DNA of 64,000 nt from Devosiaceae bacterium (GTDB lineage Bacteria; Pseudomonadota; Alphaproteobacteria; Rhizobiales; Devosiaceae). How positions within the stretch are numbered: the stretch's first letter is position 1; each line of letters opens with the position of its first letter. Where the stretch lies: the NCBI GenBank assembly GCA_036499825.1, contig DASYCZ010000012.1, forward strand, positions 1 through 64,000, written 5' to 3'. The notes beneath the pieces are model-generated. The model had not been told where the DNA came from. It ran no database searches and saw only the letters and a program-made list of their open reading frames with translations. This document shows positions 1,979 to 37,626 of this stretch, piece after piece. Both the position numbers and the translations under genes were made by a program.

Positions 1979-1999
1979 CCACCGGCGGGCAGAAGCCAG

Positions 2000-2041
2000 A
2001 ATATACAAGGTTTGACTTATATAAGCCTATCCTTGTATATT
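2000..2041 (+). promoter_or_regulatory. Perfect 11-bp inverted repeat (AATATACAAGG N20 CCTTGTATATT) bracketing a sigma70-like promoter (TTGACT, 18-bp spacer, TATATT); putative operator for the downstream ArsR-family regulator
   Basis: Read directly: left arm 2000-2010, right arm 2031-2041, -35 at 2012-2017, -10 at 2036-2041. A GGAGG ribosome-binding site at 2057-2061 precedes the ATG at 2070. Confidence 0.4.
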
Positions 2042-2069
2042 GCCTTCGTTCCCGTACGGAGGCCCTGCC

Positions 2070-2708: not shown

Positions 2709-2711
2709 GCC

Positions 2712-3050: not shown

Positions 3051-3131
3051 TCGCGGCGTGAACGGAACCTTCCCGCTGTTGCCGCAATTGCTTTCTAGGT
3101 TAGTTTATCTCCCAGACAGCCAAGGGACCAC

Positions 3132-3773
3132 ATGTCCATGATTCGCCGCGACGTCCTGTTGCTCGGTACGGCCTTTGCGGCCGCCATCGCCCTCCCCACC
3201 ATGCCAGCACTGGCGCTCGACCGGCAATTGACCGCTGACGAGACCAAGCTCATCAACGACATCAGCGCCCACAATACCGCCATCCGCACCATGGCGGGGC
3301 GGTTCCTGCAGATCGACAGCGCCGGCGGCCGCATCGAGGGCACCTTCTACCTGCAGCGCCCCGACAAGGTCCGCTTCCGCTACAATCCACCCAGCCGCCA
3401 GGAAATCATTTCCGTCGGCCGCGGCTTTTACGTCGTCGACCGCAAGGAGCAGACCCAATACGCCTATCCGCAGGACCGCATTCCGCTGCGCAATTTTTTG
3501 GGCGACAAGATCGACCTGTTGACCTCCAACATCGTCGATGTCGCCACCTCCGACGGCTATATGACGGTGACGGTTTCGGACGATACCCCCATCGGCACCG
3601 TGCAGGTCGGGCTGACCTTTGGCACCGACAGCCTCGATCTCAAGCAGTGGAACCTGGTCGAGCCCAGCGGCGAACAGCTGACCTTCTCGCTCTATGATAT
3701 CGAAAAGGACGTGGATATCCCCAAATCCTTCTTCTATATCGATCCCACCTACAAGGCGCTGGAACCCAAGTAA
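3132..3773 (+). CDS. lolA: Outer-membrane lipoprotein carrier LolA-like periplasmic protein (Tat/Sec signal peptide)
   Basis: 213 aa with an N-terminal RRDVLLLGTAFAAAIALP signal and the LolA fold pattern (FxQ...GxxYLQRPDKVRFRY). ftsK-lolA adjacency is conserved in alphaproteobacteria. Confidence 0.75.
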   Translation: MSMIRRDVLLLGTAFAAAIALPTMPALALDRQLTADETKLINDISAHNTAIRTMAGRFLQIDSAGGRIEGTFYLQRPDKVRFRYNPPSRQEIISVGRGFYVVDRKEQTQYAYPQDRIPLRNFLGDKIDLLTSNIVDVATSDGYMTVTVSDDTPIGTVQVGLTFGTDSLDLKQWNLVEPSGEQLTFSLYDIEKDVDIPKSFFYIDPTYKALEPK

Positions 3774-3804
3774 CAGCGCCCCTCTCGCGCTGGAAACTCC
3801 CGCC

Positions 3805-4611
3805 ATGTCCGTGACTGTCGCCACCTGGAACATCAATTCGGTGCGTCTGCGCCTGCCGATCGTGCTCGATCTGCTCAGCCAGTATGGCCCGGACGTACTG
3901 ATGCTGCAGGAGATCAAGTGCACCAATGACCAGTTTCCCGCCAAGGCCTTCGCCGAAGCCGGTTATCCCTACCAGGCCGTGCACGGCCAGAAGGGCTATC
4001 ACGGCGTCGCCACCGTCTCGAAATTCCCGCTGACCGATATTTCCAGCCGGGTTTTCTGCGATATCCCCGAAAGCCGGCACGTCTCGGCCCTGCTGGATTT
4101 CGGCCAGGGGCCGGTAACCTTCCATAATTTCTACATTCCGGCCGGCGGCGACGAGCCCGATCCCCTCATCAACCCCAAGTTCAAGCACAAGCTGGGCTTT
4201 CTGGATGAGCTCAAGACCTGGTTCGCCGAGCCCTCTTTTGCGCGCGGCCATCTCATCGCCGGGGATTTCAACGTCGCCCCGCATGAGAACGACGTCTGGA
4301 GCCACAAGCAGCTGTTGAAGATCGTGAGCCATACGCCGGCCGAAACCGAGCGCCTCGACGCGCTCCTCGCCGGTGGCCATGGCTGGGTCGATCTGGTGCG
4401 CAAGCACGTGCCCTATGACCAGAAGCTCTATTCCTGGTGGAGTTATCGGGCCCAGGACTGGCAGGCTTCCGACCGCGGCCGGCGTCTCGACCATATCTGG
4501 TCCACCGCCGATATCGCCGCGCATTCGACCGGCGCCGAAATCCTGCGCCCGGCGCGCGGCTGGAGCGACAAGCCGTCCGACCACGTCCCCGTGATGGTGC
4601 GCTTCAGCTAG
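3805..4611 (+). CDS. xthA: Exodeoxyribonuclease III
   Basis: MSVTVATWNINSVRLR...LMLQEIK...SDHVPVMVRF: canonical ExoIII/AP-endonuclease motifs. The internal ATG of ORF 3694..4611 was chosen as start. Confidence 0.9.
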   Translation: MSVTVATWNINSVRLRLPIVLDLLSQYGPDVLMLQEIKCTNDQFPAKAFAEAGYPYQAVHGQKGYHGVATVSKFPLTDISSRVFCDIPESRHVSALLDFGQGPVTFHNFYIPAGGDEPDPLINPKFKHKLGFLDELKTWFAEPSFARGHLIAGDFNVAPHENDVWSHKQLLKIVSHTPAETERLDALLAGGHGWVDLVRKHVPYDQKLYSWWSYRAQDWQASDRGRRLDHIWSTADIAAHSTGAEILRPARGWSDKPSDHVPVMVRFS

Positions 4612-5072
4612 ATCTCGTCCTTGTTCATCCGGCCGTGCAGCGGCGTGATGGCGCCGAGATAGGCGCTCAGCTCCATGCGGATGTGATCCGCCGCCCGCTC
4701 GGCGAGGTCGGGATATTGCTTGGCAAGCTTGAGGAACGCCTGACGCGGCACGAACAGCGTTTCGACCGGCGTCAGCGCCGTCACCGTCACCGGCCGGGGC
4801 TTGGACAGGACCAGCGCCATGGCGCCGATCAGCGCCCCCTCCATGGTGATGTCCTTGGGCTTGCCGGCGCCTTCGCCCTGCGGGGCGATGCGGATGCGGC
4901 CCGAGATCAGCACATGGGCGCCCTGCGGCACCTCGCCTTCGGCGAACAGCGCCCCGCCCGCCGTAAAGCTTTGCCTCTCGCTGGCGAAAGCCAGGAGCCG
5001 CCTTTGCTCATCGTTGCAGATGGCGAAGAAATCGGCATGCGCCAGGATCGTCGCCGCGTCGTCCAGTTGCAT
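4608..5072 (-). CDS. Cyclic-nucleotide-binding (Crp-like cNMP-binding) domain protein
   Basis: ORF 4608..5150, start taken at MQLDD. Carries a cNMP-binding beta-barrel signature (FASERQSFTAGGALFAEGE...GEGAGKP...GEMAL). Confidence 0.65.
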   Translation of the reverse strand: MQLDDAATILAHADFFAICNDEQRRLLAFASERQSFTAGGALFAEGEVPQGAHVLISGRIRIAPQGEGAGKPKDITMEGALIGAMALVLSKPRPVTVTALTPVETLFVPRQAFLKLAKQYPDLAERAADHIRMELSAYLGAITPLHGRMNKDEI

Positions 5073-5208
5073 GCTGCCCCAATATCCCCGCCGGAGCGCA
5101 ACCGGCATCCGGCTGCAATTCGCCCCAGACGCAGTTATAGGAGCGCGCAAGCCGTTGGGGAACCGGTTTCGGCTCGTTTCCCAACGCTAGCGCCCCCGGC
5201 AGCGTGCC

Positions 5209-5892
5209 TCAGGGCACCAGCCGGTAGCCGCCTTCTTCGGTGACCAATAGCCGCGCATTGGAAGGGTCCCGCTCGATCTTCTGGCGCAGGCGGTAGATAT
5301 GGGTTTCGAGCGTATGGGTAGTGACGCGGTTGTTGTAGCCCCACACTTCCTTCAGCAGCACATCGCGCGTGATGGTCTTGGGACCCTGGCGATAGAGATA
5401 TTTGAGGATCGAGGTTTCCTTGTCGGTCAGCCGCACCTTGCCGCCATCCGTGCCCTCGAGCAGCTTGGCGGCCGGCTGGAAGCTGTACTGGCCGATGGTG
5501 AAGACCACGTCCTCGCTCTGGTCGTGCTGGCGCAGCGCCGCGCGCACGCGGGCCAGCAGCACCGAAAACCGGAACGGCTTGGTCACATAGTCATTGGCGC
5601 CCGATTCCAGCCCGAGGATCTCGTCGGCGTCGCTGTCATGCCCGGTGAGCATGAGGATGGGGCTCTTGAAGCCTTCGCGCCTCAGGATTTTCACCGCCTC
5701 GCGGCCGTCCATGTCGGGCAGCCCCACGTCCAGGACCATCAGGTCGACATGGCTTTCCCGCACGGCCTTCAGGGCATCGTTGGCCGATCCGGCCTCGGCG
5801 ATGTCGAATTCCCGATACTGGGTCAGTTGTTCGACCAGGGTCTTGCGCAGGTCGGAATCGTCGTCGACGATCAGCAGTCGGCGCTTGTTCAT
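5209..5892 (-). CDS. OmpR-family two-component response regulator (receiver plus winged-helix); resembles the alphaproteobacterial CenR family
   Basis: Start at MNKRRLLIVDDD. Receiver aspartates and TGHDSDADEILGLESGANDYVTKPF are present, followed by a C-terminal trans_reg_C domain (LTDKETSILKYL...GYRL). Confidence 0.85.
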   Translation of the reverse strand: MNKRRLLIVDDDSDLRKTLVEQLTQYREFDIAEAGSANDALKAVRESHVDLMVLDVGLPDMDGREAVKILRREGFKSPILMLTGHDSDADEILGLESGANDYVTKPFRFSVLLARVRAALRQHDQSEDVVFTIGQYSFQPAAKLLEGTDGGKVRLTDKETSILKYLYRQGPKTITRDVLLKEVWGYNNRVTTHTLETHIYRLRQKIERDPSNARLLVTEEGGYRLVP

Positions 5893-6030
5893 TGCATAAT
5901 TCCTCACGGACATGCCCCCCATCATGCACATTAGGCATGGAACGGAGGGCTTCCAATCACATCGGCGTTACGGTCGCAGCAACGGCTGCTGCGTCGAAAA
6001 AGTTGCAGCAAGCCGCTGCACCGGCTGGCT

Positions 6031-6708
6031 TTAATGGCGGGCGCCGAAAAGAGCGGACCCAACCCTTACATGGGTGGCCCCCATGCCGATGGCAATCTCG
6101 AAGTCGCCGCTCATGCCCATGGACAGCAAAGGCAGCGCCGCAGCCCGCCCCAGCATCGCCAGTTGGGCGAAATACGGCCCCGGCGGCTCGCCATCGGGCG
6201 GAATGCACATCAGGCCGCAGATATCGAGCCCGTGTGTGTCCCGGCAGCGCGCCGCGAAGGCCAGGGCTTCATCGACCGCAATCCCGGATTTTTGCGCTTC
6301 CCCGCCGATATTGACCTGGACGAAGCAGGGCAGCCGCTTGCCCTGGCGCTCCATTTCGGCGCGCAGCGCCACCGCCAGCCGCTCGCGGTCGAGTGTTTCG
6401 ATGACATCGAACAGCGCTACGGCTTCCCGCACCTTGTTGGTCTGCAACGGCCCGATGAGGTGCAGCTCCGTATCGGGGTATCGGGCTTGCAGCGCCGGCC
6501 ACTTGTCCATGGCTTCCTGCACCCGGTTCTCGCCGAACCGGCGCTGCCCGGCCATGAGGAACGGCGCGATCGCCTCGGCCGGCACGGTCTTGGAAACCGC
6601 CACCAGGCGCACTATCTCCGGAGGCGCCCCGAAGCGGGCCTCTGCCGCGGTGATTCGGGCCGTAATGGCGGCAAGACGTTCGGCGGCGGAAGTCTCTGGG
6701 AACTCCAT
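6031..6708 (-). CDS. yggS: YggS-family pyridoxal-phosphate homeostasis protein (alanine-racemase N-terminal fold)
   Basis: Start at MEFPETSAAERL; conserved VSKT, GENRVQE and HLIGPLQTNK motifs. Confidence 0.85.
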   Translation of the reverse strand: MEFPETSAAERLAAITARITAAEARFGAPPEIVRLVAVSKTVPAEAIAPFLMAGQRRFGENRVQEAMDKWPALQARYPDTELHLIGPLQTNKVREAVALFDVIETLDRERLAVALRAEMERQGKRLPCFVQVNIGGEAQKSGIAVDEALAFAARCRDTHGLDICGLMCIPPDGEPPGPYFAQLAMLGRAAALPLLSMGMSGDFEIAIGMGATHVRVGSALFGARH

Positions 6709-6787
6709 CAGCGTCTTCCTGTTGACCCGGCACAGCTTTTCTGGTGATGGTCCGGTAGCCAAAATCCCCCCATAACGCAACAGGTGA

Positions 6788-6826
6788 GCAGTTATCTGCG
6801 CCTTAGAGCAGTAATCTGCGCCTTAT
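6788..6826 (+). repeat. Tandem 20-bp direct repeat (GCAGTTATCTGCGCCTTAG / GCAGTAATCTGCGCCTTAT) in the yggS-leuS divergent intergenic region
   Basis: Read directly; 17 of 19 positions identical, period 20 bp, immediately upstream of the leuS start. Confidence 0.6.
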
Positions 6827-6841
6827 AGGACTGATCCGACA

Positions 6842-9454
6842 GTGAGCGTCGAACGCTACAACCCGCGCGAAAAAGAGCCGTATTGGCAAAAGGTCTGGAA
6901 CGACCGCAAATCCTTCGTCGTCGGCGACGACCTGCCAAGCGATCCTTACTACGTCCTCGAGATGTTTCCCTATCCGTCAGGGCGCATCCATATGGGCCAT
7001 GTGCGCAATTATTCCCTGGGCGACGTCGTGGCGCGCTACCAGCGCGCCAAGGGCCGCACCGTGCTGCACCCCATGGGTTGGGACGCTTTCGGCCTTCCCG
7101 CCGAGAACGCCGCGCTGGAGCGCGGCATTCCGGCCGGCGCCTGGACGCACCAGAACATCGCCACCATGCGCGACCAGCTCAAATCCATGGGTCTGTCGCT
7201 GGACTGGAGCCGTGAGATCGCCACCTGCGATCCCTCCTATTACCGGCACCAGCAGGCCCTGTTCCTCGATTTCCTCGAGGCCGGCCTCGTCACCCGCAAG
7301 AAATCCAAGGTCAACTGGGACCCGGTCGATCATACCGTGCTCGCCAACGAGCAGGTCATCGATGGCCGCGGCTGGCGTTCCGGCGCCGTGGTCGAGCAGC
7401 GCGAGTTGACACAGTGGTTCCTGCGCATTTCCGATTTTTCCGAAGAGCTGCTGACGGCCCTCGATGGCCTCGACCAATGGCCCGACAAGGTGCGCATCAT
7501 GCAGCGCAACTGGATCGGCCGCTCGGAAGGCCTCCGCCTGTTGTTCGAGGTTGCGGAGGGCCATAACCATGCCGACAGCATCGAGGTTTTCACGACGCGC
7601 CCCGATACCATTTTCGGCGCCTCGTTCGTCGCCCTGTCGCCCGATCATGCCCTGACCACCGCGCTCAGCGCCAACGATCCGGCGCTGGCGGCGTTCGTGG
7701 CCGAATGCCATCGCCACGGCACCGCCACCGAAACCATCGAAAAGGCCGAAAAGCAGGGCTATTTCACCGGGCTGACCGTCCGTCACCCCGTGCATGCCGA
7801 CCAGACCCTGCCGGTCTATGTGGCCAATTTCGTTTTGATGGATTATGGCACCGGCGCCATTTTCGGCTGCCCGGCCCATGACCAGCGCGATCTGGATTTC
7901 GCCCGCAAATATGGGCTGCCGGTCATTCCGGTGGTGCTGCCGCCCGATGCCGATGCCGAAAGCTTCGCCGTCGCCGACGAGGCCTATGTGGGCCCCGGCC
8001 GCATCTATCATTCCGATTTCCTGAACGATCTCACCGTCGAGGCCGCCAAGGCACGCATCGCCGCTCATTTCGGCGACATCCGCATCGGCGATCGCCCGCA
8101 GGGTGTCGTCGAGGTCAACTATCGCCTGCGCGACTGGGGTATTTCCCGCCAGCGCTACTGGGGCTGCCCGATCCCGGTCATCCATTGCGAGACCTGCGGC
8201 ACCGTGCCGGTCCCCAAGAAGGACCTGCCGGTGAAGCTGCCGGAGGACATCGACGTCAAGGTCGCCGGCAACCCGCTGGATCACCATCCGACCTGGAAGC
8301 ATGTCCATTGCCCGCAATGCGGCGGCGCGGCACGGCGTGAAACCGACACCATGGACACGTTCGTGGATTCGTCCTGGTACTTTACCCGCTTCACGGCCCC
8401 GCAGGCCGATACGCCGACCGTGCCCGCCATGGCCAATGCCTGGCTGCCGGTCGACCAGTATATCGGCGGCGTCGAGCACGCTATCCTGCACCTGCTCTAT
8501 TCGCGCTTCTTCACGCGCGCCATGCACAAGACCGGCCACGTCAACGTCGACGAGCCCTTCAAGGGCATGTTCACCCAGGGCATGGTGACCCACGAAACCT
8601 ACCGCACCCCCACGGGTGACTGGGTGGCGCCCGTGGATGTGCTGATCGAGGGCATCGGCGAAGGCCGGACCGCCCAGCACGTCACCAGTGGCGCCGCGAT
8701 CACCATCGGCGCCATCGAAAAGATGAGCAAATCCAAGAAGAACGTCGTCGATCCCGACGAGATCGTGCGCACCTACGGCGCCGATACGGCGCGCTGGTTC
8801 ATGCTCTCCGACTCCCCGCCCGAGCGGGACGTGCAGTGGACAGAGGCCGGCATCGAAGGCGCCAGCCGTTTCCAGCAGCGTATCTGGAAGCTGGTGGCTG
8901 AATCGATCGATATCATTGGACAGTCTCCCGCAACCGTTCAATCGACCGATGACGCCCTGCCCCTGCGCAAGCTTGTGCATCGCGCTGTCCGCAGCGTCGG
9001 CGAGGACATCGAGGGCCTGCGCTTCAACCGTGCCGTCGCCCAGATCTACGAATTGACCAATGCCCTGGCCAAATTCGTGGTGGGACTGGAGGCCGGCGCC
9101 ACCGCCGAGCAGCAATTGGCACTGGCCGAGGGCGTCGAACGCCTGGTGCAGCTGGTGGCCCCGATGATGCCGCATCTGGCCGAGACCTGCTGGCAGGCCC
9201 TCGGGCGCGACGGCCTCGTCTGCGATGCGCGCTGGCCCAGCGTCGATCCGGCCCTGCTGGTCGATGACACCGTGACGATCGCCATCCAGGTCGCCGGCAA
9301 ACGCCGGGCCGAAATCGAGCTGCCCAAGGGCCTGCCCAATGCGGAAGTCGAGCAGCGGGTCTTGTCTCTGGAGGCAATCGCCCGCATTCTCGACGGCGCG
9401 ACACCGCGCAAGATCGTTATCGTACCAGACAGGATCGTCAATGTGGTCATCTAA
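6842..9454 (+). CDS. leuS: Leucyl-tRNA synthetase
   Basis: 870 aa with HMGH and KMSKS class-I signatures and a leucyl-specific domain. Confidence 0.95.
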
Positions 9455-9947
9455 GCGCCTGGCCGGCAAGGTCTTGTTTGCATTGGCATTTTCCATGCCG
9501 GTGCTAGCCCTCGCCGGCTGCACGCTGACCCCTGTCTATTCGGAGGCGAACACCGAAGGCAAATTCGCCGTTCGTTTCGCCCCGCCCGCCGATCGCCTGC
9601 AGCAGCTCGTCTATCAGGATCTGGCGCTGCGGTTCCCCGGCACCGCCGGTCCGGATGCGCCCACGGTTCACATAACCGTACGGCCCCGGGCGCACCTCCT
9701 GGCGCGCACCGCGACCGACAACCCGTTGCAATCGCTCGAGGTGGGCGTAACCGGAACCATCAAGATCATTGCCGCCGACGGCAAGACGGTTTTGCCGTCC
9801 ACCAGTCGCACCGCGAGCGCCGGCTATGAAGTCAGCGGTCAGGTCTTTGCCGATACCGAAGCCCGCACCGAGGCGACGGAGCGCGCCACCCATGAGCTGG
9901 CCGAAAGCCTGCGTCTCGCCATGCTCGCGGCGCTGGCCAGCCGTTAG
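9441..9947 (+). CDS. lptE: LPS-assembly lipoprotein LptE
   Basis: Lipobox LALAGC plus LptE-like sequence. Its ATG overlaps the leuS 3' end; leuS-lptE-holA is a conserved synteny. Confidence 0.75.
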
Positions 9948-10970
9948 ATGACGGCCCTCAAGGCCCACGAGGTCGCGCGCTTCCTGCAGCGGCCCGACCT
10001 CGATGAGGGTATCTTTTTGGCCTACGGCCCCGATGCGGGCCTCGTCAGCGAAACCGCCAAGACTCTTGCCAAGCGCCTTGCCGGCACCAAGGGGCAAGGC
10101 ACCGAGGTGCTGGTGTTTGAAGGCTCCGAACTCGACGCCGAACCTTCACTGCTGGCCATCGAGGCCAAAACCCAATCGATGTTCGGGGACAAGCGCATCA
10201 TTCGCGTCCGCGGCGCCACCAAATCCCTGCTGCTGACGCTGACTGAGCTGCGCGACGATCCGCAGGGCGCCGTCATCATCCTCGAAGCAGGCAATCTTCT
10301 TCCCAAGGACGCCTTGCGGGCCTTTGTCGAGGCCGCCAAATCCGGCCGCGCTCTGCCCTGCTATCCCGATACGGATGAGAGCCTCAGCGCTCTCATTCGC
10401 GAAACCTTCAATCAGAATGGCATTCGGGTCGATGCCGACGTGCTACCGGCCCTGCGGGGCATTCTGGGCAATGATCGGGAGGTGACGCGGCGCGAACTTG
10501 AAAAGCTGACGCTCTTCGCCGCGTCCAGCAAGGAACTGACCCTGGTGGACGTCATGACGCTTTGTGCCGACAACGCCGCGTTGGTGATGGACGAGATCAT
10601 TGATGCCACCGGCACCGGCCACGCCCAAAAGCTCGACGATGCGCTTAATCGTGCCTTTGCGGCGGCCGTCGACCCGCAGCGACTACTCGCCGTGAGTCTC
10701 AATCATTTCAGTGGCTTACGGCGACTGCGCGGAGAAGTCGATGCCGGGCGTTCGCCACGCGACGTGCTTGAATCGGCCCGGCCCCGTCCACATTTTTCCC
10801 GCAAGGCCGCCATGGAGCAGCAATTGCGCCTATGGAGCGACGGCGCCCTGGCCAATGCTTGCGAGCGGCTCCAGGACATGGTGGCCGAGAGCCGGCGCAA
10901 GCCGGCACTGGCCGAAGCCCTGCTGCGCCGCAGCCTTTTGGCACTCGCCACGATGGCCGCCGGTCATTGA
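9948..10970 (+). CDS. holA: DNA polymerase III delta subunit
   Basis: 340 aa with delta-subunit-like N-terminal and clamp-loader fold; positioned after lptE as in most proteobacteria. Confidence 0.8.
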   Translation: MTALKAHEVARFLQRPDLDEGIFLAYGPDAGLVSETAKTLAKRLAGTKGQGTEVLVFEGSELDAEPSLLAIEAKTQSMFGDKRIIRVRGATKSLLLTLTELRDDPQGAVIILEAGNLLPKDALRAFVEAAKSGRALPCYPDTDESLSALIRETFNQNGIRVDADVLPALRGILGNDREVTRRELEKLTLFAASSKELTLVDVMTLCADNAALVMDEIIDATGTGHAQKLDDALNRAFAAAVDPQRLLAVSLNHFSGLRRLRGEVDAGRSPRDVLESARPRPHFSRKAAMEQQLRLWSDGALANACERLQDMVAESRRKPALAEALLRRSLLALATMAAGH

Positions 10971-10972
10971 GC

Positions 10973-10988
10973 CGTTTCACGTGAAACG
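10973..10988. other. parS: parS site (cGTTTCACGTGAAACg, 14/16 match to TGTTTCACGTGAAACA) in the holA/parB convergent intergenic region
   Basis: Palindrome read directly; matches the canonical ParB-binding parS consensus TGTTNCACGTGAAACA. Confidence 0.8.
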
Positions 10989-11021
10989 ACGTCAAAAACC
11001 TCATCTGTTTCAGAAGCTTGC

Positions 11022-11897
11022 CTAGTTCCCCGACAATTTCGTGCAAATGGCGTCGAGCTGCTCCAGCGTCCGGTAGCGTATTTCGAGACGCCCGCCATTA
11101 GAGGCATGGTTGATGCTGACCGCCAGCCCCAGCACATCCGAAAGCTGCTTTTCGACGGCTCGCGTATCGGCGTCCTTTTCCTCACGCTCGACGCTCGGGC
11201 GGCGCTTGGGAACATTGAGATCGCGCTGGCTCAACGCCTCCGCTTCGCGCACCGATAATCCACCACCGACGATCTGGCGCGCCAACGCCGCCGGATCCTC
11301 GGCCGTGATCAGCGTCCGCGCATGGCCAGCCGTCAGTTCGCCGCGCGCCAGCATATCGCGCACGTCATCCGGCAGACGCAACAGCCGGAGGGTATTGGCG
11401 ACATGCGAGCGGCTCTTGCCGATGACCTGTCCGAGATCCTGCTGCGTATAGCCGAACTGCTGCATCAGCTGGTCATAGCCCATCGCCTCTTCGAGCGGGC
11501 TGAGATCGGCGCGCTGCACGTTCTCGATAATCGCAAGCTCGAGGGCTTCCTTGTCATCGACCTCACGGACGATGACCGGTACATCATGGAGGCCAGCCCG
11601 CTGCGCGGCGCGCCAACGGCGCTCGCCTGCGATGATCTCAAAGATATTGGGATCCTGGCTCGGACGCACCAGCAGCGGCTGCATGACGCCCTTCTCACGA
11701 ATGGAACTGGTCAGCTCCTCCAGCTGATCCGGATCGAAATCCCGTCGCGGATTCTGCCGGTTGGCGATGATGAATTCAACCGGTAAACGCTTGATGCCAT
11801 TGGATGATTCCGCGACACGCGCACCCTCCAGCGTTGCCATGTCGCCGATCAGCGCCGCAAGGCCGCGTCCAAGTCGTGAGGGTTTGTCAGTCATCAT
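11022..11897 (-). CDS. parB: Chromosome partitioning protein ParB
   Basis: ParB box (GERRWRAA), HTH and LGRGL motifs; lies immediately downstream of parA. Confidence 0.95.
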   Translation of the reverse strand: MMTDKPSRLGRGLAALIGDMATLEGARVAESSNGIKRLPVEFIIANRQNPRRDFDPDQLEELTSSIREKGVMQPLLVRPSQDPNIFEIIAGERRWRAAQRAGLHDVPVIVREVDDKEALELAIIENVQRADLSPLEEAMGYDQLMQQFGYTQQDLGQVIGKSRSHVANTLRLLRLPDDVRDMLARGELTAGHARTLITAEDPAALARQIVGGGLSVREAEALSQRDLNVPKRRPSVEREEKDADTRAVEKQLSDVLGLAVSINHASNGGRLEIRYRTLEQLDAICTKLSGN

Positions 11898-11907
11898 CGT
11901 TCCTTCC

Positions 11908-12723
11908 TCAAGCTGCTACCAGCTGCCGCTCACGCCGGATTACTTCCGTCGCAAGCCGCAAATAGGCCTGGCTGCCGGCGCATTTGAGATCATAGAGCAG
12001 CGCCGGCTTACCGTAGGACGGAGCTTCGCTGAGTCTCACGTTACGGGGAATGACCGTATCGTAGACAAGATCGCCCATTTCATGGCGCACATCCTGCAAC
12101 ACCTGCTCGGAGAGATTGTTGCGCTTGTCGAACATGGTCATCACCACGCCCTGGATAGACAGGCGCGGATTGAGCGTCGAGCGAATCTGCTCGATGGTCT
12201 GCAACAGCTGGCTCAGACCTTCCAGCGCAAAGAATTCACATTGCAACGGCACCAGCACCGCATCCGCCGCCACCAGCGCATTGATGGTCAGGAGATTGAG
12301 CGAGGGCGGACAATCGATGAGCACATAGCTCACCGCCTGGTTGTTGATGGTAAGTTCGCCGATTGCCTTGAAGGCGTCACGCAACCGGAAAGCCCGATCG
12401 GCATGCAACGCAATGGTCAGCTCGACGCCGAGCAGATCCATGGTCGACGGCACGATCGCCACATTGGGGACCGAAGTCATGACCGCCGCCTGCGCGATGC
12501 GGGCCTCGCCCACCAGCAGGTCATAGCTCGAAACTTCACGCCCGGCACGGGAAATACCCAGGCCCGTGGAAGCATTGCCCTGCGGGTCGAGATCGAGGAT
12601 CAGCACACGCTCGCCGATCGCCGCCAAGGCGGTCGCGAGGTTAATCGCCGTCGTGGTTTTGCCGACGCCGCCCTTCTGGTTTGCCAGAGTCAAAATTCGT
12701 GGAGCCACTGCCGGCCTCCGCAA
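11908..12723 (-). CDS. parA: Chromosome partitioning ATPase ParA
   Basis: Deviant Walker A (ANQKGGVGKTTTAINLA) and overall ParA/Soj family sequence. Confidence 0.95.
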   Translation of the reverse strand: MRRPAVAPRILTLANQKGGVGKTTTAINLATALAAIGERVLILDLDPQGNASTGLGISRAGREVSSYDLLVGEARIAQAAVMTSVPNVAIVPSTMDLLGVELTIALHADRAFRLRDAFKAIGELTINNQAVSYVLIDCPPSLNLLTINALVAADAVLVPLQCEFFALEGLSQLLQTIEQIRSTLNPRLSIQGVVMTMFDKRNNLSEQVLQDVRHEMGDLVYDTVIPRNVRLSEAPSYGKPALLYDLKCAGSQAYLRLATEVIRRERQLVAA

Positions 12724-13371
12724 CTATTTGGTTTTCAAGCTTAAATTGCTAAGCTCTAGAATGACGCCGCCACTATCGGTAACGCTTGGATGTTCTATCA
12801 CGTCAAAGCGCCAGCGCGCATCCGTTTCCGCCAGCTCTTCAACATATTCCCGGCCTTTATGCAGCAGCGCGCGGGTTTGTGATGTAAAAAACGGCATCAT
12901 CATACCGCAGAGATCGTTGAGACTCGCCAGTGCGCGTGCGGTTATCACGTCAGGCGGCAATGTTTCACGTGGATCAATGGCGTCGCTCCGATTCGACAGC
13001 ACAGTGACATTCAGCGAAAGGTCCCGTGCAACGGCTCTGAGAAAGCTCACCTTTCTGGAGTTCGAGTCGATCAGGACGAAGCGCGGCTTACCCTTCAGCG
13101 CGATGGCAAGCGGCAATGAGGGGAAACCGCCGCCGCTGCCGAAGTCGAGAAAGTTCGCCGCGTCCCCCACAAGGCTCAGAATCTGCAAGCTATCGGCGAT
13201 ATGGCGTGTCCATAGCGTCGCCAATGTTTCACGTGAAACAAGATTCTGTATCCTCTGCCATTTCTGCAATAACTGAGAAAAGGATTCCAGATCACTGGCG
13301 ACTTCGCTGATCGGCCGCGTCAGCCACTGCTCATAGGGAGCGAGCGTTGCGAGAGCCTCTTGTCCGGCCAC
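12724..13371 (-). CDS. rsmG: 16S rRNA (guanine527-N7)-methyltransferase RsmG (GidB)
   Basis: GidB family SAM-binding motifs (LDFGSGGGFPSLPLA); GTG start; conserved mnmG-rsmG-parAB order. Confidence 0.9.
   Translation of the reverse strand: MAGQEALATLAPYEQWLTRPISEVASDLESFSQLLQKWQRIQNLVSRETLATLWTRHIADSLQILSLVGDAANFLDFGSGGGFPSLPLAIALKGKPRFVLIDSNSRKVSFLRAVARDLSLNVTVLSNRSDAIDPRETLPPDVITARALASLNDLCGMMMPFFTSQTRALLHKGREYVEELAETDARWRFDVIEHPSVTDSGGVILELSNLSLKTK
12961..12976. other. parS: parS-like site (TGTTTCACGTGGATCA, 14/16) inside rsmG
   Basis: Read directly. Confidence 0.5.
13225..13240. other. parS: Perfect parS site (TGTTTCACGTGAAACA, 16/16) inside rsmG coding sequence
   Basis: Read directly; exact match to the canonical parS. 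On the minus strand it encodes V-S-R-E-T of RsmG. Confidence 0.9.
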
Positions 13372-15234
13372 TTAGCTGGCCTTCGCCATGGCACCGCGGC
13401 GGATAACCGCCAGGAGCAATGTAACCGCAGCCGGCGTCATGCCATCGATCGCCTGCGCCTGCGCTAGCGTTGCGGGCTTGCGCATCGCGAGCTTCTGGCG
13501 CAATTCCATCGACAGGCCCGGCATGGCATCGTAATCGACCCATCCCGGAATCGCGCGACTCTCATCACGCCGGACCGCTTCGATGTCGGCTTTCTGGCGA
13601 TCGAGATAAACCGCATACTGCGCATCGATGGATAACTGCTCCAAGGTCGCTGCCGGGATGCTGGCGATTTCCGGCCACAAGCGCTCCAAATCCGTGGCAG
13701 CCACATCCGGATATGACATCAACTCGAAGGCCGAACGTACCCTGCCATCGGCATTGACGGCGAAGCCCGCCTGGCGGGCCACCGTCGGCGACGACGTCAG
13801 GCTATCGAGCAGCACCCGGCCTTTAGTCAGGCGCTCGCGTTTTTCTTCAAATATTTCAACCCGTTGTGGCCCGACGAGGCCCGTCTCGGTCCCCATTGGG
13901 GTAAGCCGTTGATCGGCATTATCGGCCCGCAGATGCAAGCGAAACTCAGCGCGTGAAGTGAACATGCGATAGGGCTCGCTGACGCCACGGGTTACCAGAT
14001 CATCCACCATCACGCCGAGATAGCTCTCGGTGCGGGACAGCACGATCTGTTCGGCTCCACTCGCCATCAGGCCCGCATTGGCGCCGGCGAGCAGGCCCTG
14101 GGCGCCCGCTTCCTCATAACCTGTCGTGCCGTTGATCTGTCCGGCAAGGAACAGTCCCGGGAGCCGTTGCAACTCCAATGTCGCCCGCAGCTCGCGAGGA
14201 TCGACGTGATCATATTCGATGGCATAGCCCGGCCGCACGATGCGGACGTTCTCCAATCCGGGCATGGAGTGCAGGAACGCCTCCTGTACTTCCGCCGGCA
14301 ATGAGGTCGACAGGCCGTTCGGATAGATGGTGGTATCGTCGAGGCCTTCCGGCTCCAGGAAAATCTGGTGGCTGTCGCGGTCAGCGAAGCGTACGATCTT
14401 GTCTTCGATCGACGGGCAATACCGTGGTCCCCGGCTCTGGATACGCCCCGAATACATCGCCGATCGATGAATATTGTCGGCGATGATGCGGTGCGTTTCA
14501 GCCGTCGTCCGCGTGATGAAGCACGACACCTGGGGCGTCGTGATCACCGACGTGAGCGCCGAGAAGGGCTCCGGCGGCACGTCGCCCTGCTGTTCTTCCA
14601 GCGCGCTAAAATCGATTGTCGCACCATCGAGCCGCGCGGGCGTGCCAGTTTTCAGGCGTCCCAGGCGCAGGCCGAGCGTTTCCAGCCGCGTCGACAGGCC
14701 GAGCACCGGCTTTTCGCCGACCCGCCCCGCAGGCACGGTCTCTTCACCTCGATGGATCAGGCCGCGCAGGAATGTTCCGGTCGTCAGCACCACGGCCTTG
14801 GCCGAAAAGCTACGCCCATCCAACAACCTGACCCCCGCCACCGCGCCATCTTGGACGATGAGATCATCGACTTCGCCCTCGATGACATCGAGATGGCTCT
14901 GCGCCGTGATCGCCGCCTGCATGGCCTCACGGTAGAGCTTGCGATCTGCCTGGGCGCGCGGCCCACGCACAGCTGGCCCTTTGCGGCGGTTCAGCACGCG
15001 GAACTGAATGCCGGCAGCATCGGCGACACGACCCATGAGGCCATCCAGCGCATCGATTTCGCGCACAAGATGGCCCTTGCCGAGGCCTCCGATCGCCGGA
15101 TTGCAGCTCATCTCGCCGATGGTTGCGAATTTGTGGGTAATGAGCGCCGTCGGGACGCCCAGGCGTGCCGCGGCCGCAGCCGCTTCACAGCCCGCATGTC
15201 CGCCGCCGACAACGATGACGCCAAAATCACTCAT
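13372..15234 (-). CDS. mnmG: tRNA uridine-5-carboxymethylaminomethyl modification enzyme MnmG (GidA)
   Basis: 620 aa with FAD-binding [10 protein letters not shown] and full-length GidA similarity. Confidence 0.95.
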
Positions 15235-15267
15235 GGAATTCTCCGGAAGTCCGGCGGTTTAGGCCAA

Positions 15268-15283
15268 TGTTTCACGTGAATCA
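15268..15283. other. parS: parS site (TGTTTCACGTGAATCA, 15/16) between mnmE and mnmG
   Basis: Read directly. Confidence 0.8.
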
Positions 15284-15304
15284 AGCGTCACACGGTCCTG
15301 GCCG

Positions 15305-15320
15305 TGTTTCACGTGAATCA
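15305..15320. other. parS: parS site (TGTTTCACGTGAATCA, 15/16) overlapping the mnmE stop codon
   Basis: Read directly; a second copy 37 bp from the previous one. Confidence 0.8.
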
Positions 15321-16622
15321 TTTGCCGATGCAAAAGCTCGAAAACAGTCTGTCGAGGATCATCTCCGGGTCGATCTTCCCGAGGAGGCGCTCCAGCTCGG
15401 TCGATGCGATACGCAATTGTTCGGCCGCCAACTCGGGCTGCCCCAGGCTACGTATGGCGAACTCCAGCGCGGCGACCGCTTCCGCGAGGCGCTCCCGATC
15501 GCGCTCGCGGCTGACCAGCGACGGCTCGCCCTCGCCAGCCAGCTCGGCTGCAAACACCGAAAGCCGCCGTGTCAACGCGGCTATCCCCTCATCTGTGACC
15601 ACCGAGATAGCCAAGTCGAACGTTCCGGCTGGCGTACCCAAATCCCGCTTTGTAGCGATGCGCCAGATCGGCGCCTCAACATCGAACTCTTCTTCCAGCC
15701 CTGCATCGGGCGCCTCGAGCTTAAGAACCAGGTCAGCCCGGCTAAGCTCCAGGCGCGCGCGCCGCACACCCTCGGCCTCCGCCTTGCTGTCCGTGTCCCG
15801 CAGGCCGGCGAGGTCGACGACGATCAGTAATTGCCCATCGAGATCGATGGCCACCTCGCGCACGTCGCGCGTCGTTCCCGGCTCCTCGGTGACGATAGCC
15901 ACGTCCGATCGGGCCAAGGCATTGACCAGGCTGGATTTTCCGGCATTGGGCGCACCCGCCAGGGCGACGCGAACCCCCTCGCGCACGATACGGCCACGCG
16001 TCACGCTTTCGAGCGCCCGGCTGAGTTGCCCCATGAGGGTGGCAATGTCGGCGCCGAACGACGCCGGCAATTCCGCCGATACGTCGCCTTCGTCGGAGAA
16101 ATCCAGACGCGCCTCGATCTCGGCCCTCAAATCCAGGAGTCGTTCACGCCAGTCGGTCACTGCGGCCGACAGGCCACCCGATGCGCGCATCAGCGCCTGC
16201 TTGCGCTGGCTTTCGGTTTCCGCATCGAGCAGATCGCCAAGACCCTCGATCTCGGTGAGATCGAGCTTGCCGTTCTCGAAAGCGCGCCGGGTAAATTCGC
16301 CGGCTTCAGCCAGCCTTATCCCGGACTCTGCCGTCAGTGTGCGCAGAATTGCCCGCACGCCCGCAGGCGAGCCATGCACCTGCAACTCGGCGCAATCTTC
16401 GCCCGTAAAACTACGGGGGGCCGGAAACCAGGTGACCAGCCCGCGATCGAGGATCGTATCGCCGATCTTCACATCGGCAAGCACCAGGCGGCGCGGCTCA
16501 GGCAACCGCCCCAGGATGGCTTCGACCACGCCTGCCGTCGCGGGCCCGGAGAGGCGGACCACCGCCACCCCGGAGGGCAATCCGCCCGACGACAACGCCA
16601 CGATGGTATCGCCGGCACGCAT
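15318..16622 (-). CDS. mnmE: tRNA modification GTPase MnmE (TrmE)
   Basis: G-domain motifs (GAPNAGKSSL, DLAG), an N-terminal THF-binding region, and the C-terminal CIGK. Confidence 0.95.
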   Translation of the reverse strand: MRAGDTIVALSSGGLPSGVAVVRLSGPATAGVVEAILGRLPEPRRLVLADVKIGDTILDRGLVTWFPAPRSFTGEDCAELQVHGSPAGVRAILRTLTAESGIRLAEAGEFTRRAFENGKLDLTEIEGLGDLLDAETESQRKQALMRASGGLSAAVTDWRERLLDLRAEIEARLDFSDEGDVSAELPASFGADIATLMGQLSRALESVTRGRIVREGVRVALAGAPNAGKSSLVNALARSDVAIVTEEPGTTRDVREVAIDLDGQLLIVVDLAGLRDTDSKAEAEGVRRARLELSRADLVLKLEAPDAGLEEEFDVEAPIWRIATKRDLGTPAGTFDLAISVVTDEGIAALTRRLSVFAAELAGEGEPSLVSRERDRERLAEAVAALEFAIRSLGQPELAAEQLRIASTELERLLGKIDPEMILDRLFSSFCIGK

Positions 16623-16637
16623 GATCGGATCGCGGTA

Positions 16638-17903
16638 TCAGGTGTTCATGGACTCGAAGAATTCGCCATTGGTCTTGGTCTGGCGGATCTTGTCCATCAG
16701 GAATTCCATGGCGTCGATCGTGCCCATCGGCGTCAGGATGCGGCGGAGCACATACATCTTCTTCAAGATATCGGGCTCGACCAGCAGCTCTTCCTTGCGG
16801 GTGCCGGACTTGGTGATATCCAGCGCCGGGAACACGCGCTTATCCGCCACCTTGCGGTCGAGAATGATTTCCGAGTTACCCGTACCCTTGAACTCTTCGA
16901 AGATCACTTCGTCCATGCGCGAGCCGGTATCGATCAGCGCCGTGGAAATGATGGTGAGCGAGCCGCCATCCTCGATATTGCGCGCCGCGCCGAAGAAGCG
17001 CTTCGGGCGCTGCAGCGCATTGGCGTCCACGCCGCCGGTCAACACCTTGCCCGAGCTTGGCACCACGGTGTTGTAGGCGCGGCCCAAACGGGTGATGGAA
17101 TCGAGCAGGATGACGACGTCACGCTTGTGTTCGACCAGGCGCTTGGCCTTTTCGATCACCATTTCGGCGACTTGCACGTGGCGCGAGGCCGGCTCGTCGA
17201 AGGTCGAGGAAATCACCTCACCCTTCACAGAGCGCTGCATGTCGGTCACTTCTTCGGGCCGCTCATCGATCAGCAGTACGATGAGGTAGCATTCGGGGTG
17301 ATTGGTAGCGATAGACTGTGCGATATTTTGCAACAGTACCGTCTTACCAGTACGGGGCGGCGCAACAATCAAAGCACGCTGGCCCTTGCCGAGCGGCGCC
17401 ACCAGGTCGAGTACGCGGGCGCTGCGATCCCTGATCGTGGGGTCCGGCAGTTCCATGCGCAGCCGCTCATCGGGATAAAGCGGCGTCAAATTGTCGAAAT
17501 TGATCTTGTGGCGGACCGCTTCTGGGTCCTCGAAATTGATGGTGTTGACCTTGAGCAGGGCGAAATAGCGCTCGCCCTCCTTGGGTGAACGAATCTGCCC
17601 TTCGACCGTATCGCCGGTGCGCAGCGAGAACCGCCGGATCTGCGAGGGGCTGACATAGATGTCGTCGGGACCGGGCAGGTAATTGGCATCGGGCGAACGC
17701 AGGAAGCCGAAGCCATCGGGCAGCACTTCGACCACGCCCTCGCCGGTGATGTCGACCTCTTTGGCCGCCAGCTCCTTGAGGATGGCAAACATCAATTCCT
17801 GCTTGCGCATGGTCGAGGCGTTCTCGACCTCGTGTTCCTCGGCGAAAACCAGCAGTTCGGCTGGGGACTTGGCCTTGAGCTCGCTGAGCTTCAGATTTTG
17901 CAT
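16638..17903 (-). CDS. rho: Transcription termination factor Rho
   Basis: Start at [10 protein letters not shown]; RNA-binding cold-shock-like domain, Walker A (GKTVLLQ) and conserved Rho motifs. Confidence 0.95.
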
Positions 17904-18055
17904 ACGGAGTAACCCTTTGGGGAAGTCGGGTGAGGGCATGGTGGGGAGGGAAATACACCGCCGCGGCGGCTGGAATCAGCCGCGCTCTCTGGGTGAGATG
18001 GGCACTGATTTACCCAAAAGCCGCGCCGGTTTCAAGGCGATTATCGCCGGAGACC

Positions 18056-18071
18056 GGCGATTCACGTGAAA
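18056..18071. other. parS: parS-like site (cGaTTCACGTGAAACA, 14/16) in the rho upstream region
   Basis: Read directly. Confidence 0.6.
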
Positions 18072-18092
18072 CAGGTTATGCCCGCGCCGCGA

Positions 18093-18521
18093 TCAGAATG
18101 GTTTGACGATGACCATGATGACGATGACGATCATCAGGACCGTCGGAATCTCGTTGATCATGCGGAAGAATTTGGCCGGCTTGTCGTTCCGGTCCTGGGC
18201 GAATGCCCTCAGATACCGGCCCAAAACGCCGTGAAAACCGCTGAGCGCCAGAACGAACACGGCCTTGACCCAGGGCCAGATGCTGCTCCAGTCGACCGCG
18301 CCGCCAAAGATCATCGCCAGGCCGAACACATAAGCGGCGATCATCGCCGGCGTGGTGATGCCGCGATAGAGCCGCCGCTCCATGATCTTGAAGGTTTCGG
18401 ACTGCACCGAGCCTTTTTCGGCATCGGCGTGATAGACGAACAATCGCGGCAGATACAGCATGCCCGCCATCCAGGCGATCACCGAGATCACATGCAGTGC
18501 CTTGACCCATTCGATCCACAT
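18093..18521 (-). CDS. hemJ: Protoporphyrinogen IX oxidase HemJ (CopD-like membrane protein)
   Basis: 142 aa, multi-pass membrane protein with HemJ signature (W..A.H.I.....AG..YLPRLFVYH). Confidence 0.8.
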   Translation of the reverse strand: MWIEWVKALHVISVIAWMAGMLYLPRLFVYHADAEKGSVQSETFKIMERRLYRGITTPAMIAAYVFGLAMIFGGAVDWSSIWPWVKAVFVLALSGFHGVLGRYLRAFAQDRNDKPAKFFRMINEIPTVLMIVIVIMVIVKPF

Positions 18522-19561
18522 CAGCGGCGACCCTTTACGATTTCGACCAGTTCCGCCACGTTTTCGATCGGCGTTTCCGGCACAATGCCATGCCCGAGGT
18601 TGAAGATATGCGGCCGGCCCGAAAAGCCCCTGATGATGGCTTCCGCCCGCTCCCGCATCTGTGTCCCACCTGCCACGAGGCGCAGCGGATCAAGATTGCC
18701 CTGCACGCCGAGCGTCCTGGGCAGGATGGAATCCGCAAACCCCACCGGCATCGAATAATCGAGGCCGACGAGATTTACCTTAGTCGATTCGGCGTAGCGG
18801 GAAATCATGCCGGCGGCACCACGGGGAAAACCGATGATGGGCGCGTCGGCGATCTGCTGCCGGACGCCGGCAACGATGCGGCAGTTCGGCTCAATCACAT
18901 GGGAAACGAAGGCGTCTTCGTCAAGGTTCAGCGCCCAGCTTTCAAACAGCTGCACCACATCGGCGCCGGCGCGGAACTGCGCCACCAGATGGGCGATACT
19001 GGCCTCGATGAGGATATCCAGCAATTGCCCGAAGGCCTCGGGTTGTTGCAGCGCGAACAGCCGGGCCGCCGCCTGATCGGTCGAACCCCGGCCGTTTATC
19101 ATGTAGGTCGCAACAGTCCAGGGCGAGCCGCAAAAGCCGATCAGCGTCTTGTCGGCCGCAAGGCTCGCTTTCACCCGCTCCAGGGTTTCGTAGACCGGCG
19201 CCAGAAACTTGACCACGCCTTCCGGCTTCAAAGCCGCAAGGCTACCGGCATCCACCGGATCGAGACGTGGTCCCTCGCCCACTTCAAAGCGAACTTTCTG
19301 GCCCAGCGCATCCGGGATGATGAGAATGTCCGAAAAGATGATCGCCGCATCGAGATCGAAGCGGCGCAGCGGCTGCAGCGTCACTTCCGCAGCCATTTCG
19401 GGGTTGTAGCACAGCTCGAGGAAGCTGCCGGCCTTGGCACGCAGCGCCTTGTACTCGGGAAGATAGCGCCCTGCCTGTCGCATCACCCACATGGGCGGCC
19501 GTTCCTGGCGCTGTCCCAGAACCGTGTCCAGTAAAGGCTTGCCGCTCGTCTTCGGGCTCAA
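18521..19561 (-). CDS. hemE: Uroporphyrinogen decarboxylase
   Basis: PPMWVMRQAGRYLPEY and downstream URO-D motifs. Probable TTG start at LSPKTSGKPLL; a longer in-frame ORF runs to 19687 but lacks a good start. Confidence 0.9.
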   Translation of the reverse strand: MSPKTSGKPLLDTVLGQRQERPPMWVMRQAGRYLPEYKALRAKAGSFLELCYNPEMAAEVTLQPLRRFDLDAAIIFSDILIIPDALGQKVRFEVGEGPRLDPVDAGSLAALKPEGVVKFLAPVYETLERVKASLAADKTLIGFCGSPWTVATYMINGRGSTDQAAARLFALQQPEAFGQLLDILIEASIAHLVAQFRAGADVVQLFESWALNLDEDAFVSHVIEPNCRIVAGVRQQIADAPIIGFPRGAAGMISRYAESTKVNLVGLDYSMPVGFADSILPRTLGVQGNLDPLRLVAGGTQMRERAEAIIRGFSGRPHIFNLGHGIVPETPIENVAELVEIVKGRR

Positions 19562-20005
19562 TGGGATACCCCGCTTCCCTTCCAGGAAGAGAATCTTTTC
19601 TTGTTTATCTTTATTATCATAGCGGTGTTTTGCCCCAATTCCTGGCCGTCCACAATCGCTGGCGTGATGACACAAGCGCACAGCCACAAAGGTAAACTAT
19701 GTGTAAACGCCGGCCGTGATCCCAACGGGGAAAAGCCCGGAAAATCATGGTTAACGAACCGTTAATCCGGGCCTTTCGGAGGGCGGCGGAATTTTCTCCA
19801 TTGGGGAAAACTCCTGCACCGGCACGGGCTTGCGGCTTTGGGTTTTCCCCAGAGTTACCAGTCTTGGGCCATGAGGCGTCCACAGCACCATGCCTGTGCA
19901 CGAAAAAGCGCGGCACTGGGATAAACCCGTCTCGCCGGTCTTCCCGACGGTATTTTCACAACCGGGGTCTTGAGCCAGCGTGAACTGTGTGGAAAACCTC
20001 AACGC
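19562..20005. promoter_or_regulatory. oriC: Candidate chromosomal replication origin (oriC/Cori-like) in the hemE-maf divergent intergenic region
   Basis: Same position as Caulobacter Cori (hemE | Cori | CC0001-maf-aroE-coaE-dnaQ). Contains an AT-rich stretch (19595-19625), a TTAACgaaccgTTAA CtrA-type box (19751-19765), a weaker GTAA-N7-GTAA box (19692-19706) and DnaA-box-like 9-mers (TGTGGAAAA at 19988-19996; CCGTCCACA at 19646-19654; GCGTCCACA near 19878). Confidence 0.5.
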
Positions 20006-35087: not shown

Positions 35088-35142
35088 TACGATCTTGAGG
35101 GGTTCGCTGCTCTATGCGGTAGCATCCCAGCCAAACCCAAAC

Positions 35143-37620: not shown

Positions 37621-37626
37621 ACACCC

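Follow-up and report, generated by a model that had tools for sequence, protein, structure and literature searches.

A putative parS array around the parAB locus of an uncultured Devosia-like bacterium

The 64,000-nucleotide stretch analysed here (positions 1 to 64,000 of contig DASYCZ010000012.1, assembly GCA_036499825.1; hereafter the window) carries parA and parB genes surrounded by repeated copies of a palindromic 16-mer. This raises the question of whether the 16-mers are parS sites, at which ParB would build the centromere of the chromosome, and whether their layout tells us where replication starts. We are highly confident, judging from the sequence, that the nine 16-mers in the window, together with a tenth just outside it, are chromosomal parS sites of an uncultured Devosia-like bacterium. 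This identity is proposed because the sites match the parS consensus far above chance, they lie beside parAB, the ParB encoded there has parS-type specificity residues, and the sites leave phylogenetic footprints; the initial annotation of the window, made from its letters alone, had already taken the sites for parS and for the chromosomal centromere, and these four lines of evidence bear it out. The source is regarded as a Devosia-like member of the Hyphomicrobiales because its closest ParB among reference genomes, 82% identical, comes from a Devosia metagenome-assembled genome. We found no literature on parS in Devosia.

The window was searched with TGTTTCACGTGAAACA, allowing up to three mismatches, and the number of matches expected by chance was computed. 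Nine matches were found at 0–2 mismatches where 0.01 were expected, and none in the window had exactly three, so the mismatch distribution is bimodal. The same nine fit the 16-bp parS palindrome TGTTNCACGTGAAACA with 0–2 mismatches. The window has exactly eight copies of the 10-mer TTCACGTGAA, compared with a mean of 0.00 in 100 dinucleotide-preserving shuffles and ∼0.02 expected from composition (64.5% GC), and the 10-bp core is perfect in all but one of the nine sites. Including the tenth site, differences are confined to positions 1/16 and 3/14, plus a single A-to-G change at position 12; positions 2, 4–11, 13 and 15 are identical in all ten (G2 and C15 included). The initial annotation had reported eight copies of the 10-mer against ∼0.02 expected, a ninth variant with one mismatch (the 12961 site, with core TTCACGTGGA) and an extended consensus equal to canonical parS, all of which we reproduced. 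Its coordinates were right for seven of the nine sites, with 18056–18071 now corrected to 18058–18073 and 47989–48004 to 47990–48005. Its gene assignments were also correct as far as they went, and need two additions: the 12961 site, too, lies inside rsmG, and the site described as following dnaK is intergenic, before an esterase gene.

How far the array extends was followed beyond the window on metagenome contig 3300036781 / Ga0376653_0000022 (record coordinate = 180649 − window coordinate), a contig of 719.6 kb of which, with the window, 81 kb were scanned in total, from −7.9 to 73.3 kb in extended coordinates. The tenth site was found there, 1.5 kb to the right of where the window ends; it has the same sequence as the site in hisA and sits between a MarC-family gene and a 38-amino-acid open reading frame (ORF). 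To the left, neither the 7.9 kb outside the window nor its positions 1–10972 yielded a parS site (18.9 kb scanned). There are thus six sites in the 7.1 kb around parAB, none in the 18.9 kb leftward and four in the 47 kb rightward (Table 1). Successive gaps among the clustered sites are 1988, 264, 2043, 37 and 2753 bp, the 37 bp being the distance between the starts of the 15268 and 15305 sites in the 83-bp mnmE-mnmG spacer, and the gaps leading to the four distal sites are 14.4, 5.5, 10.0 and 17.5 kb. The initial annotation had placed the array 1.5–9 kb from a putative origin, with three weaker copies further off. Its full extent, counting the extension, is at least 54.6 kb (37 kb inside the window), running from parB in one direction only, to the right.

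The protein that would read these sites is encoded among them. ParB scores 188 bits against TIGR00180 (ParB/Spo0J; cut-off 58), has the Pfam architecture ParB_N + HTH_ParB + ParB_C (HTH, helix-turn-helix), and aligns over residues 7–233 with the Caulobacter ParB crystallised on parS (6T1F) at ∼62% identity (E = 8e-76). Its N-terminal LGRGL peptide (in 'srlgrglaaligd') and its cytidine triphosphate (CTP) motif GERRWRA (in 'iiagerrwraaqrag') fit the patterns LG(R/K)GL and GERRxRA of a ParB clamp, and the partner ParA has the corresponding KGGxGK(T/S). The recognition helix, KSRSHVANTLRLL, is one residue off that of Caulobacter, and the GELTAGHAR stretch is essentially identical to it. Specificity residues were mapped through the 6T1F alignment (chain index + 10). 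The parS-type set is R173/T179/A184/G201 and the Noc-type set Q/K/K/R, position 184 being variable among ParBs, and there are six conserved DNA contacts, Q162, G170, K171, S172, N178 and R204 (Jalal et al., PMC7383237). The ParB studied here has R, T, R and G at 173, 179, 184 and 201, and equivalents of all six contacts are present. An identity as the nucleoid-occlusion factor Noc, acting on Noc-binding sites (NBS), was considered and rejected: the protein lacks Q173, K179, K184 and R201 and scores 218 bits against the NCBIfam Noc model, under its cut-off of 315, and the core of the sites is that of parS and not of an ATTTCCCGGGAAAT-type NBS.

Conservation of the sites was assessed in 73 ParB-centred Hyphomicrobiales loci from reference genomes (L001–L073). 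Measured from the parB start, the clustered sites of the window lie at −6176, −3423/−3386, −1343, −1079 and +909, and those of Devosia loci L001–L004 at ∼−6200, −3437/−3400, −1360, −1090 and +900. All six recur in D. nitrariae NBRC 112416 (L003). The 37-bp spacing of the mnmE-mnmG pair is kept in L001, L003 and L004, the 18058 site has the same offset in L003 and L004, and an equivalent of the 10973 site is found 877–1185 bp downstream of the parB start in L002–L005. More widely, most of the 73 loci have parS in or near rsmG plus one or two copies upstream of mnmG. Counted within ±10 kb of parB, the loci have 0–7 sites; the window, with six, stands high in this range, which is normal for Devosiaceae. 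When the mnmE-mnmG spacer was aligned over five Devosia genomes, both 16-mers were invariant, while the 21 bp between them were unconserved and replaced by a longer insert in one genome.

The sites inside rsmG allow selection on the DNA to be separated from selection on the protein. At the 13225 site, VSRET is encoded as GTT TCA CGT GAA ACx in every Devosiaceae sequence that has VSRET, with the codons alongside varying synonymously; given the peptide and the codon usage of the window, this string of five rare codons has a probability of 1.15e-5. Where a family lacks a site here, the peptide is VAPST and its codons vary freely, which implies that RsmG has changed even in its amino-acid sequence to accommodate the site. 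Around the 12961 site RsmG is variable and cannot otherwise be aligned between families, yet Devosia sequences share GAT (T/C)CA CGT GAA ACA there, in Devosia relatives as GAT TCA CGT GAA ACA (DSRET). The codon position of the rsmG-internal site differs by family: Devosiaceae read NLV-SRET-L where Rhizobiaceae and Stappiaceae read NLV-APST-L, the site of the latter two lying ∼100–170 bp further from parB. It follows that the rsmG site has been gained, or has moved within the gene, more than once. The positions of the sites, the spacer footprint, the rsmG codons and the sites in hisA and the his region (below) together indicate that the sites are under selection as DNA.

Could such conservation reflect some other reader of the sequence? 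The hexamer CACGTG is a generic palindrome, and the 16-mers might, rather than being ParB sites, be read by another factor that recognises CACGTG, for instance a restriction-modification system or some other regulator, or might belong to a small repeat present in several copies. We find this scarcely credible. Conservation covers the full 14–16 bp of the parS consensus, beyond the hexamer, and the sites cluster at a parAB locus, as they do in hundreds of genomes, with the cognate reader encoded alongside. Nor are they copies of a repeat element, since the sequences beside the ten sites have nothing in common. Outside the nine window sites CACGTG is rarer than in dinucleotide shuffles (5 versus ∼16), as is the isolated half-site GWTTCAC outside parS (3 versus ∼12); stray sites at which ParB could nucleate may have been avoided, or codon usage, which the shuffles ignore, may be the whole explanation.

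A different possibility accepts the sites as genuine parS and assigns the mnmE-mnmG pair (15268–15320) another main role, as an operator through which ParB tunes a possible mnmG-rsmG-parA-parB operon that includes its own gene (autoregulation), segregation being served by the other sites. The geometry is suggestive, with the pair 34–86 bp upstream of the mnmG start codon and gaps of 0, 30 and 10 bp between successive genes that would be compatible with a single transcript. The pair is conserved in Devosia along with a motif, TTGGCNTA, just downstream of it, and Maritalea and Roseibium also have a pair of sites upstream of mnmG. There is also a precedent in P. aeruginosa, whose ParB is reported to repress promoters beside high-affinity parS (PMC5521831). 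Against this, the operon is deduced from gene spacing alone, and a consensus scan of 10900–18200 found no sigma-70-like promoter; the same interval has two weak terminator-like hairpins, neither at a parS site. In addition, Rhizobiaceae have a single parS at this place, which suggests an ancestral location for segregation and not a special operator. On balance, we consider a mainly regulatory role for the pair improbable.

The distal sites behave differently from the cluster. The initial annotation had called them weaker, yet their mismatch count is no worse than that of three of the six clustered sites. The hisA site is present as the same 16-mer at the same offset (+689) in the contigs of the nine closest metagenomic relatives (HisA 83–91% identical), and is absent from that position in more distant Devosia-like contigs, which in many cases have a parS-like 16-mer at some other place within these 20 kb, where the chance expectation is ∼0.003 per locus. 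For the nth site no counterpart was found in close relatives, and it appears lineage-specific. It falls inside a pfkB-nth-ada-dapB(-pyrF) block (∼35100–42400, ∼7 kb) that is inverted with respect to close relatives L082, L083, L085 and L089, and not with respect to L084. This pattern fits accessory sites under weaker, position-independent selection, turning over between lineages.

The turnover could also mean that only the clustered, conserved sites function, and that the distal 14/16 copies (hisA, nth, downstream of dnaK and at 65.5 kb) are weak or non-functional, arising and decaying over time. The absence of the nth site from close relatives and the restriction of the hisA site to the nearest clade would agree with this, as would the fact that in other Devosia-like contigs the sites lie elsewhere in the same region or are lacking within ±10 kb. 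However, about half of the relatives' his-region loci have a distal 16-mer, every one with a perfect 10-bp core, where ∼0.003 per 20 kb would be expected, and because of this disparity the recurrent gain of distal sites looks selected. The hisA site is, moreover, written in rare codons (probability 9e-5 given the peptide), and ParB1 of A. tumefaciens occupies ∼40 kb (PMC8833148). We therefore regard decay of functionless distal copies as rather unlikely.

All four intragenic sites of the window are read in the phase giving (V/D)(S/P)RE(T/A). As a general rule this reading-frame bias was rejected, both stop-free phases being used across relatives (48 versus 21), although these counts are rough, the ORF caller having left 270 of 339 sites unassigned.

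Several points weigh against the identification of the ten 16-mers as parS. The organism is known only from a metagenome contig, so we infer ParB binding. Some sites have two mismatches, among them the variants at position 3/14 (T/A/C) and the TTCACGTGGA core variant. The nth site is unconserved even in close relatives, and with distal sites turning over, some may be weak or neutral. Lastly, proximity to the origin, which is usual for chromosomal parS, is unconfirmed by polarity signals (below).

If the sites are parS, a mechanism can be proposed by analogy. ParB dimers would recognise each palindrome through the helix-turn-helix, bind CTP at GERRWRA, close into a clamp and slide onto flanking DNA. 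Sites only 0.04–2.8 kb apart would then merge into one continuous partition complex covering at least 10.9–18.1 kb (roughly from holA to hemJ), and the distal sites would act as weaker satellite loading points, giving satellite peaks. ParA, in its ATP form on the nucleoid, would move the partition complex, and ParB probably loads structural maintenance of chromosomes (SMC) complexes there. We infer binding, sliding, segregation and SMC loading by ParB from systems in which CTP clamping and sliding, pulling by ParA and loading of SMC have been described (review, PMC7333895; see also PMC7053999 and PMC8367383). The initial annotation had the array define the zone of ParB spreading and SMC loading, which goes beyond the sequence evidence and is reasonable by analogy with such systems.

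Where, then, is the origin? In Rhizobiaceae the skew-defined origin is where the maf-aroE-coaE-dnaQ genes begin, and the origin of S. meliloti is also said to lie next to hemE (a finding reportedly of Sibley et al. 2006). Cori of Caulobacter adjoins hemE and contains two G-boxes, five W-boxes and CtrA sites (PMC6393856). The syntenic equivalent here is the hemE-maf spacer, which the initial annotation had chosen as putative origin. A DnaA box, a CtrA box and an AT-rich region beside hemE, as in a Cori-type origin, are all found there (a 46% GC block covers 19521–19700), and the DnaA box (TTTTCCACA), the CtrA box (TTAACGAACCGTTAA) and the AT-rich block are conserved in five Devosia genomes. Full CtrA-type boxes (TTAA-N7-TTAA) number three in the window against ∼0.07 expected from composition. 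The other two, at 56150–56164 and 61055–61069, lie one in the hrcA/rph divergent spacer and the other upstream of an rsmI-like gene. Compared with Caulobacter Cori, the spacer is motif-poor, and the window has no cluster of DnaA boxes, only six dispersed boxes at up to one mismatch.

Polarity signals do not support an origin in the spacer. GC skew at third codon positions (GC3 skew) was fitted with separate terms for gene strand and replication polarity. The polarity term r is −0.13 left of 19.8 kb and −0.08, −0.12, −0.07 and −0.15 in four successive blocks rightward, and the raw skew is negative throughout the extensions to −7.9 kb and +73.3 kb. The motif CCCTGCC occurs 11 times on the plus strand and 0 times on the minus strand to the left of the spacer, and 13 and 3 times to its right. 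GGGNAGGG occurs 15 times on the minus strand and 5 times on the plus strand, four of the five plus copies lying inside two palindromic repeat elements (34975–35090 and 44837–44950). From −7.9 to 73.3 kb, neither GC3 skew nor the orientation of GGCAGGG and GGGNAGGG shows a polarity switch at the spacer or anywhere else, and the minus strand looks 'leading' throughout. That the chaperone genes to the right (dnaK, dnaJ, grpE, hrcA, hslUV and secB) are all on the minus strand also counts against an origin at the spacer. A local inversion was rejected as the reason for the absent skew flip, since the order and orientation of maf-aroE-coaE-dnaQ-secB...hslUV-hisBHAFE are the same in relatives. Thus, of the statement that the array lies 1.5–9 kb from the origin, the distances stand (1.6–8.9 kb from spacer to cluster), and the origin at that place is unsupported by polarity. 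Placing it at 19.8 kb is unproven and possibly wrong, and we rate it as a minority prospect.

Nowhere is the window more AT-rich than at 53870–54050 (43% GC), in the intergenic space between a 71-amino-acid ORF and grpE, with inverted AAATCCACA motifs (weakly DnaA-box-like) on either side; as an alternative origin this stretch was rejected, there being no polarity change at it. For the same orthologous genes in Devosia-like relatives the polarity terms range from −0.14 to +0.05, and polarity may differ between lineages. The left flank, in the window and in all the relatives, fits an origin located at some point rightward of parAB. One tentative account is that the origin of the Devosia lineage has been displaced from the ancestral hemE-maf spacer by more than 53 kb, to the right of the extended 73 kb (below ∼107 kb in record Ga0376653_0000022). 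On this account the rightward-only array (32.5, 37.9, 48.0 and 65.5 kb) would form a centromere zone drawn out between the ancestral parAB cluster and the displaced origin, and the variation in polarity among relatives would reflect differing origins. We think this possible, though on present evidence doubtful.

The genes around the cluster are listed in Table 1 together with the sites. To the left, leuS, an lptE-sized ORF and holA are on the plus strand, and beyond hemE so are maf, aroE, coaE and dnaQ. dnaK and dnaJ are usually neighbours; here they are separated by a gene for an alpha/beta-hydrolase (an esterase of the hormone-sensitive-lipase type, 46786–47841). The two palindromic repeat elements mentioned above represent a single element, intergenic and ∼110 bp long, in which G/C-rich inverted repeats are nested (CCCCACCC...CCCTCCCC-loop-GGGGAGGG...GGGTGGGGG); it resembles a repetitive extragenic palindromic (REP) sequence or a miniature inverted-repeat transposable element (MITE). 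A search of the whole window with Rfam at gathering thresholds found one transfer RNA and no other structured RNA.

Table 1. Coordinates of the putative parS sites, the features of the hemE-maf region and the genes of the cluster (window coordinates unless stated)
Feature	Coordinates	Strand	Remarks
parS CGTTTCACGTGAAACG	10973–10988		14/16; convergent spacer, holA stop (10970) to parB stop (11022)
parS TGTTTCACGTGGATCA	12961–12976		14/16, core variant TTCACGTGGA; inside rsmG, codons 132–137 (I-D-P-R-E-T)
parS TGTTTCACGTGAAACA	13225–13240		perfect 16/16; inside rsmG, codons 44–49 (L-V-S-R-E-T)
parS TGTTTCACGTGAATCA	15268–15283		15/16; mnmE-mnmG spacer, nearer mnmG start codon (15234)
parS TGTTTCACGTGAATCA	15305–15320		15/16; final three bases are the mnmE stop codon (TGA, minus strand)
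parS CGATTCACGTGAAACA	18058–18073		14/16; hemJ-rho spacer, ∼155 bp upstream of JGI-called rho start codon (17903)
distal parS TGATTCACGTGAAGCA	32467–32482		14/16; hisA codons 230–235 (I-D-S-R-E-A), within last 15 codons
distal parS TGCTTCACGTGAATCA	37942–37957		14/16; nth codons 113–118 (P-D-S-R-E-A, minus strand)
distal parS TGATTCACGTGAAACT	47990–48005		14/16; intergenic, dnaK stop (48079) to esterase gene (start 47841)
tenth parS-like site TGATTCACGTGAAGCA	65532–65547 (extended)		past right edge of window
parB	11022–11897	−	291 aa, predicted chromosomal ParB CTPase clamp
parA	11908–12693	−	261 aa, predicted ParA ATPase, deviant Walker A motif KGGVGKTT
rsmG	12724–13371	−	
mnmG	13372–15234	−	
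mnmE	15318–16622	−	
rho	16638–17903	−	
hemJ/UPF0093	18093–18521	−	
hemE	18521–19681	−	
AT-rich block	∼19560–19640		just inside hemE 5' end; conserved
hemE-maf spacer	19682–20005		syntenic equivalent of Caulobacter Cori position; putative origin of the initial annotation
CtrA-type box TTAACGAACCGTTAA	19751–19765		full box, hemE-maf spacer
DnaA-type box TGTGGAAAA	19988–19996		sole box with up to one mismatch in hemE-maf spacer

The result marks the probable centromere of the chromosome of an uncultured Devosia, and in that respect adds little beyond annotation. rsmG also offers a clean example of DNA-level selection that appears to override codon usage, and even amino-acid sequence, in a housekeeping gene, and ParB affinity could be compared over the ten natural site variants as a small series. 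The polarity result, if confirmed on the full contig, would mean that the origin has become uncoupled from its ancestral hemE-linked position in one family of Hyphomicrobiales.

How, finally, does this array compare with known systems? The Spo0J/parS system of Bacillus subtilis, with its 16-bp palindrome TGTTNCACGTGAAACA, is reportedly that of Lin & Grossman 1998, and the general distribution of parS is said to have been surveyed by Livny et al. 2007. Like the sites described here, those of B. subtilis are several, often intragenic and dispersed; they lie in the origin-proximal part of its chromosome, where they act as SMC loading sites. The differences are that the variable position here is 3/14 (T/A/C) and not 5, and that the clustering here is far tighter. 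The number of parS sites per chromosome ranges from 1 to 20–23 (PMC7333895).

The Caulobacter crescentus parS cluster was reportedly described by Toro 2008. At least five clustered parS sites lie ∼8 kb from Cori in that species, with ParB spreading over ∼10 kb (Tran et al. 2018, PMC5815017). The consensus is the same as here, the ParBs are ∼62% identical with the same specificity residues, and in both cases the sites surround parAB on one side of the hemE-adjacent Cori position. Whereas all the Caulobacter sites fall within ∼10 kb and the origin has been mapped, here four extra sites lie 14–47 kb further on.

The closest parallel in taxonomy is A. tumefaciens C58, whose chromosome 1 has seven parS1 sites and an enrichment of ParB1 in chromatin immunoprecipitation over ∼40 kb around ori1 (Ren et al. 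2022, PMC8833148). It belongs to the same order, has the same parB-parA-rsmG-mnmG-mnmE-rho-hemE and maf-aroE-coaE-dnaQ neighbourhood on the two sides of the spacer, and likewise carries multiple canonical parS over tens of kilobases, seven there against nine to ten here. ParB binding is experimental there and predicted from sequence here, and no polarity flip is found at the equivalent spacer in the present window. Rhizobiaceae more generally have 3–5 sites within ±10 kb of parB as opposed to six, and VAPST where Devosiaceae carry their rsmG site, their own being displaced as described above. With these differences noted, the parS layout is ordinary for its kind, much as in Agrobacterium and Caulobacter.

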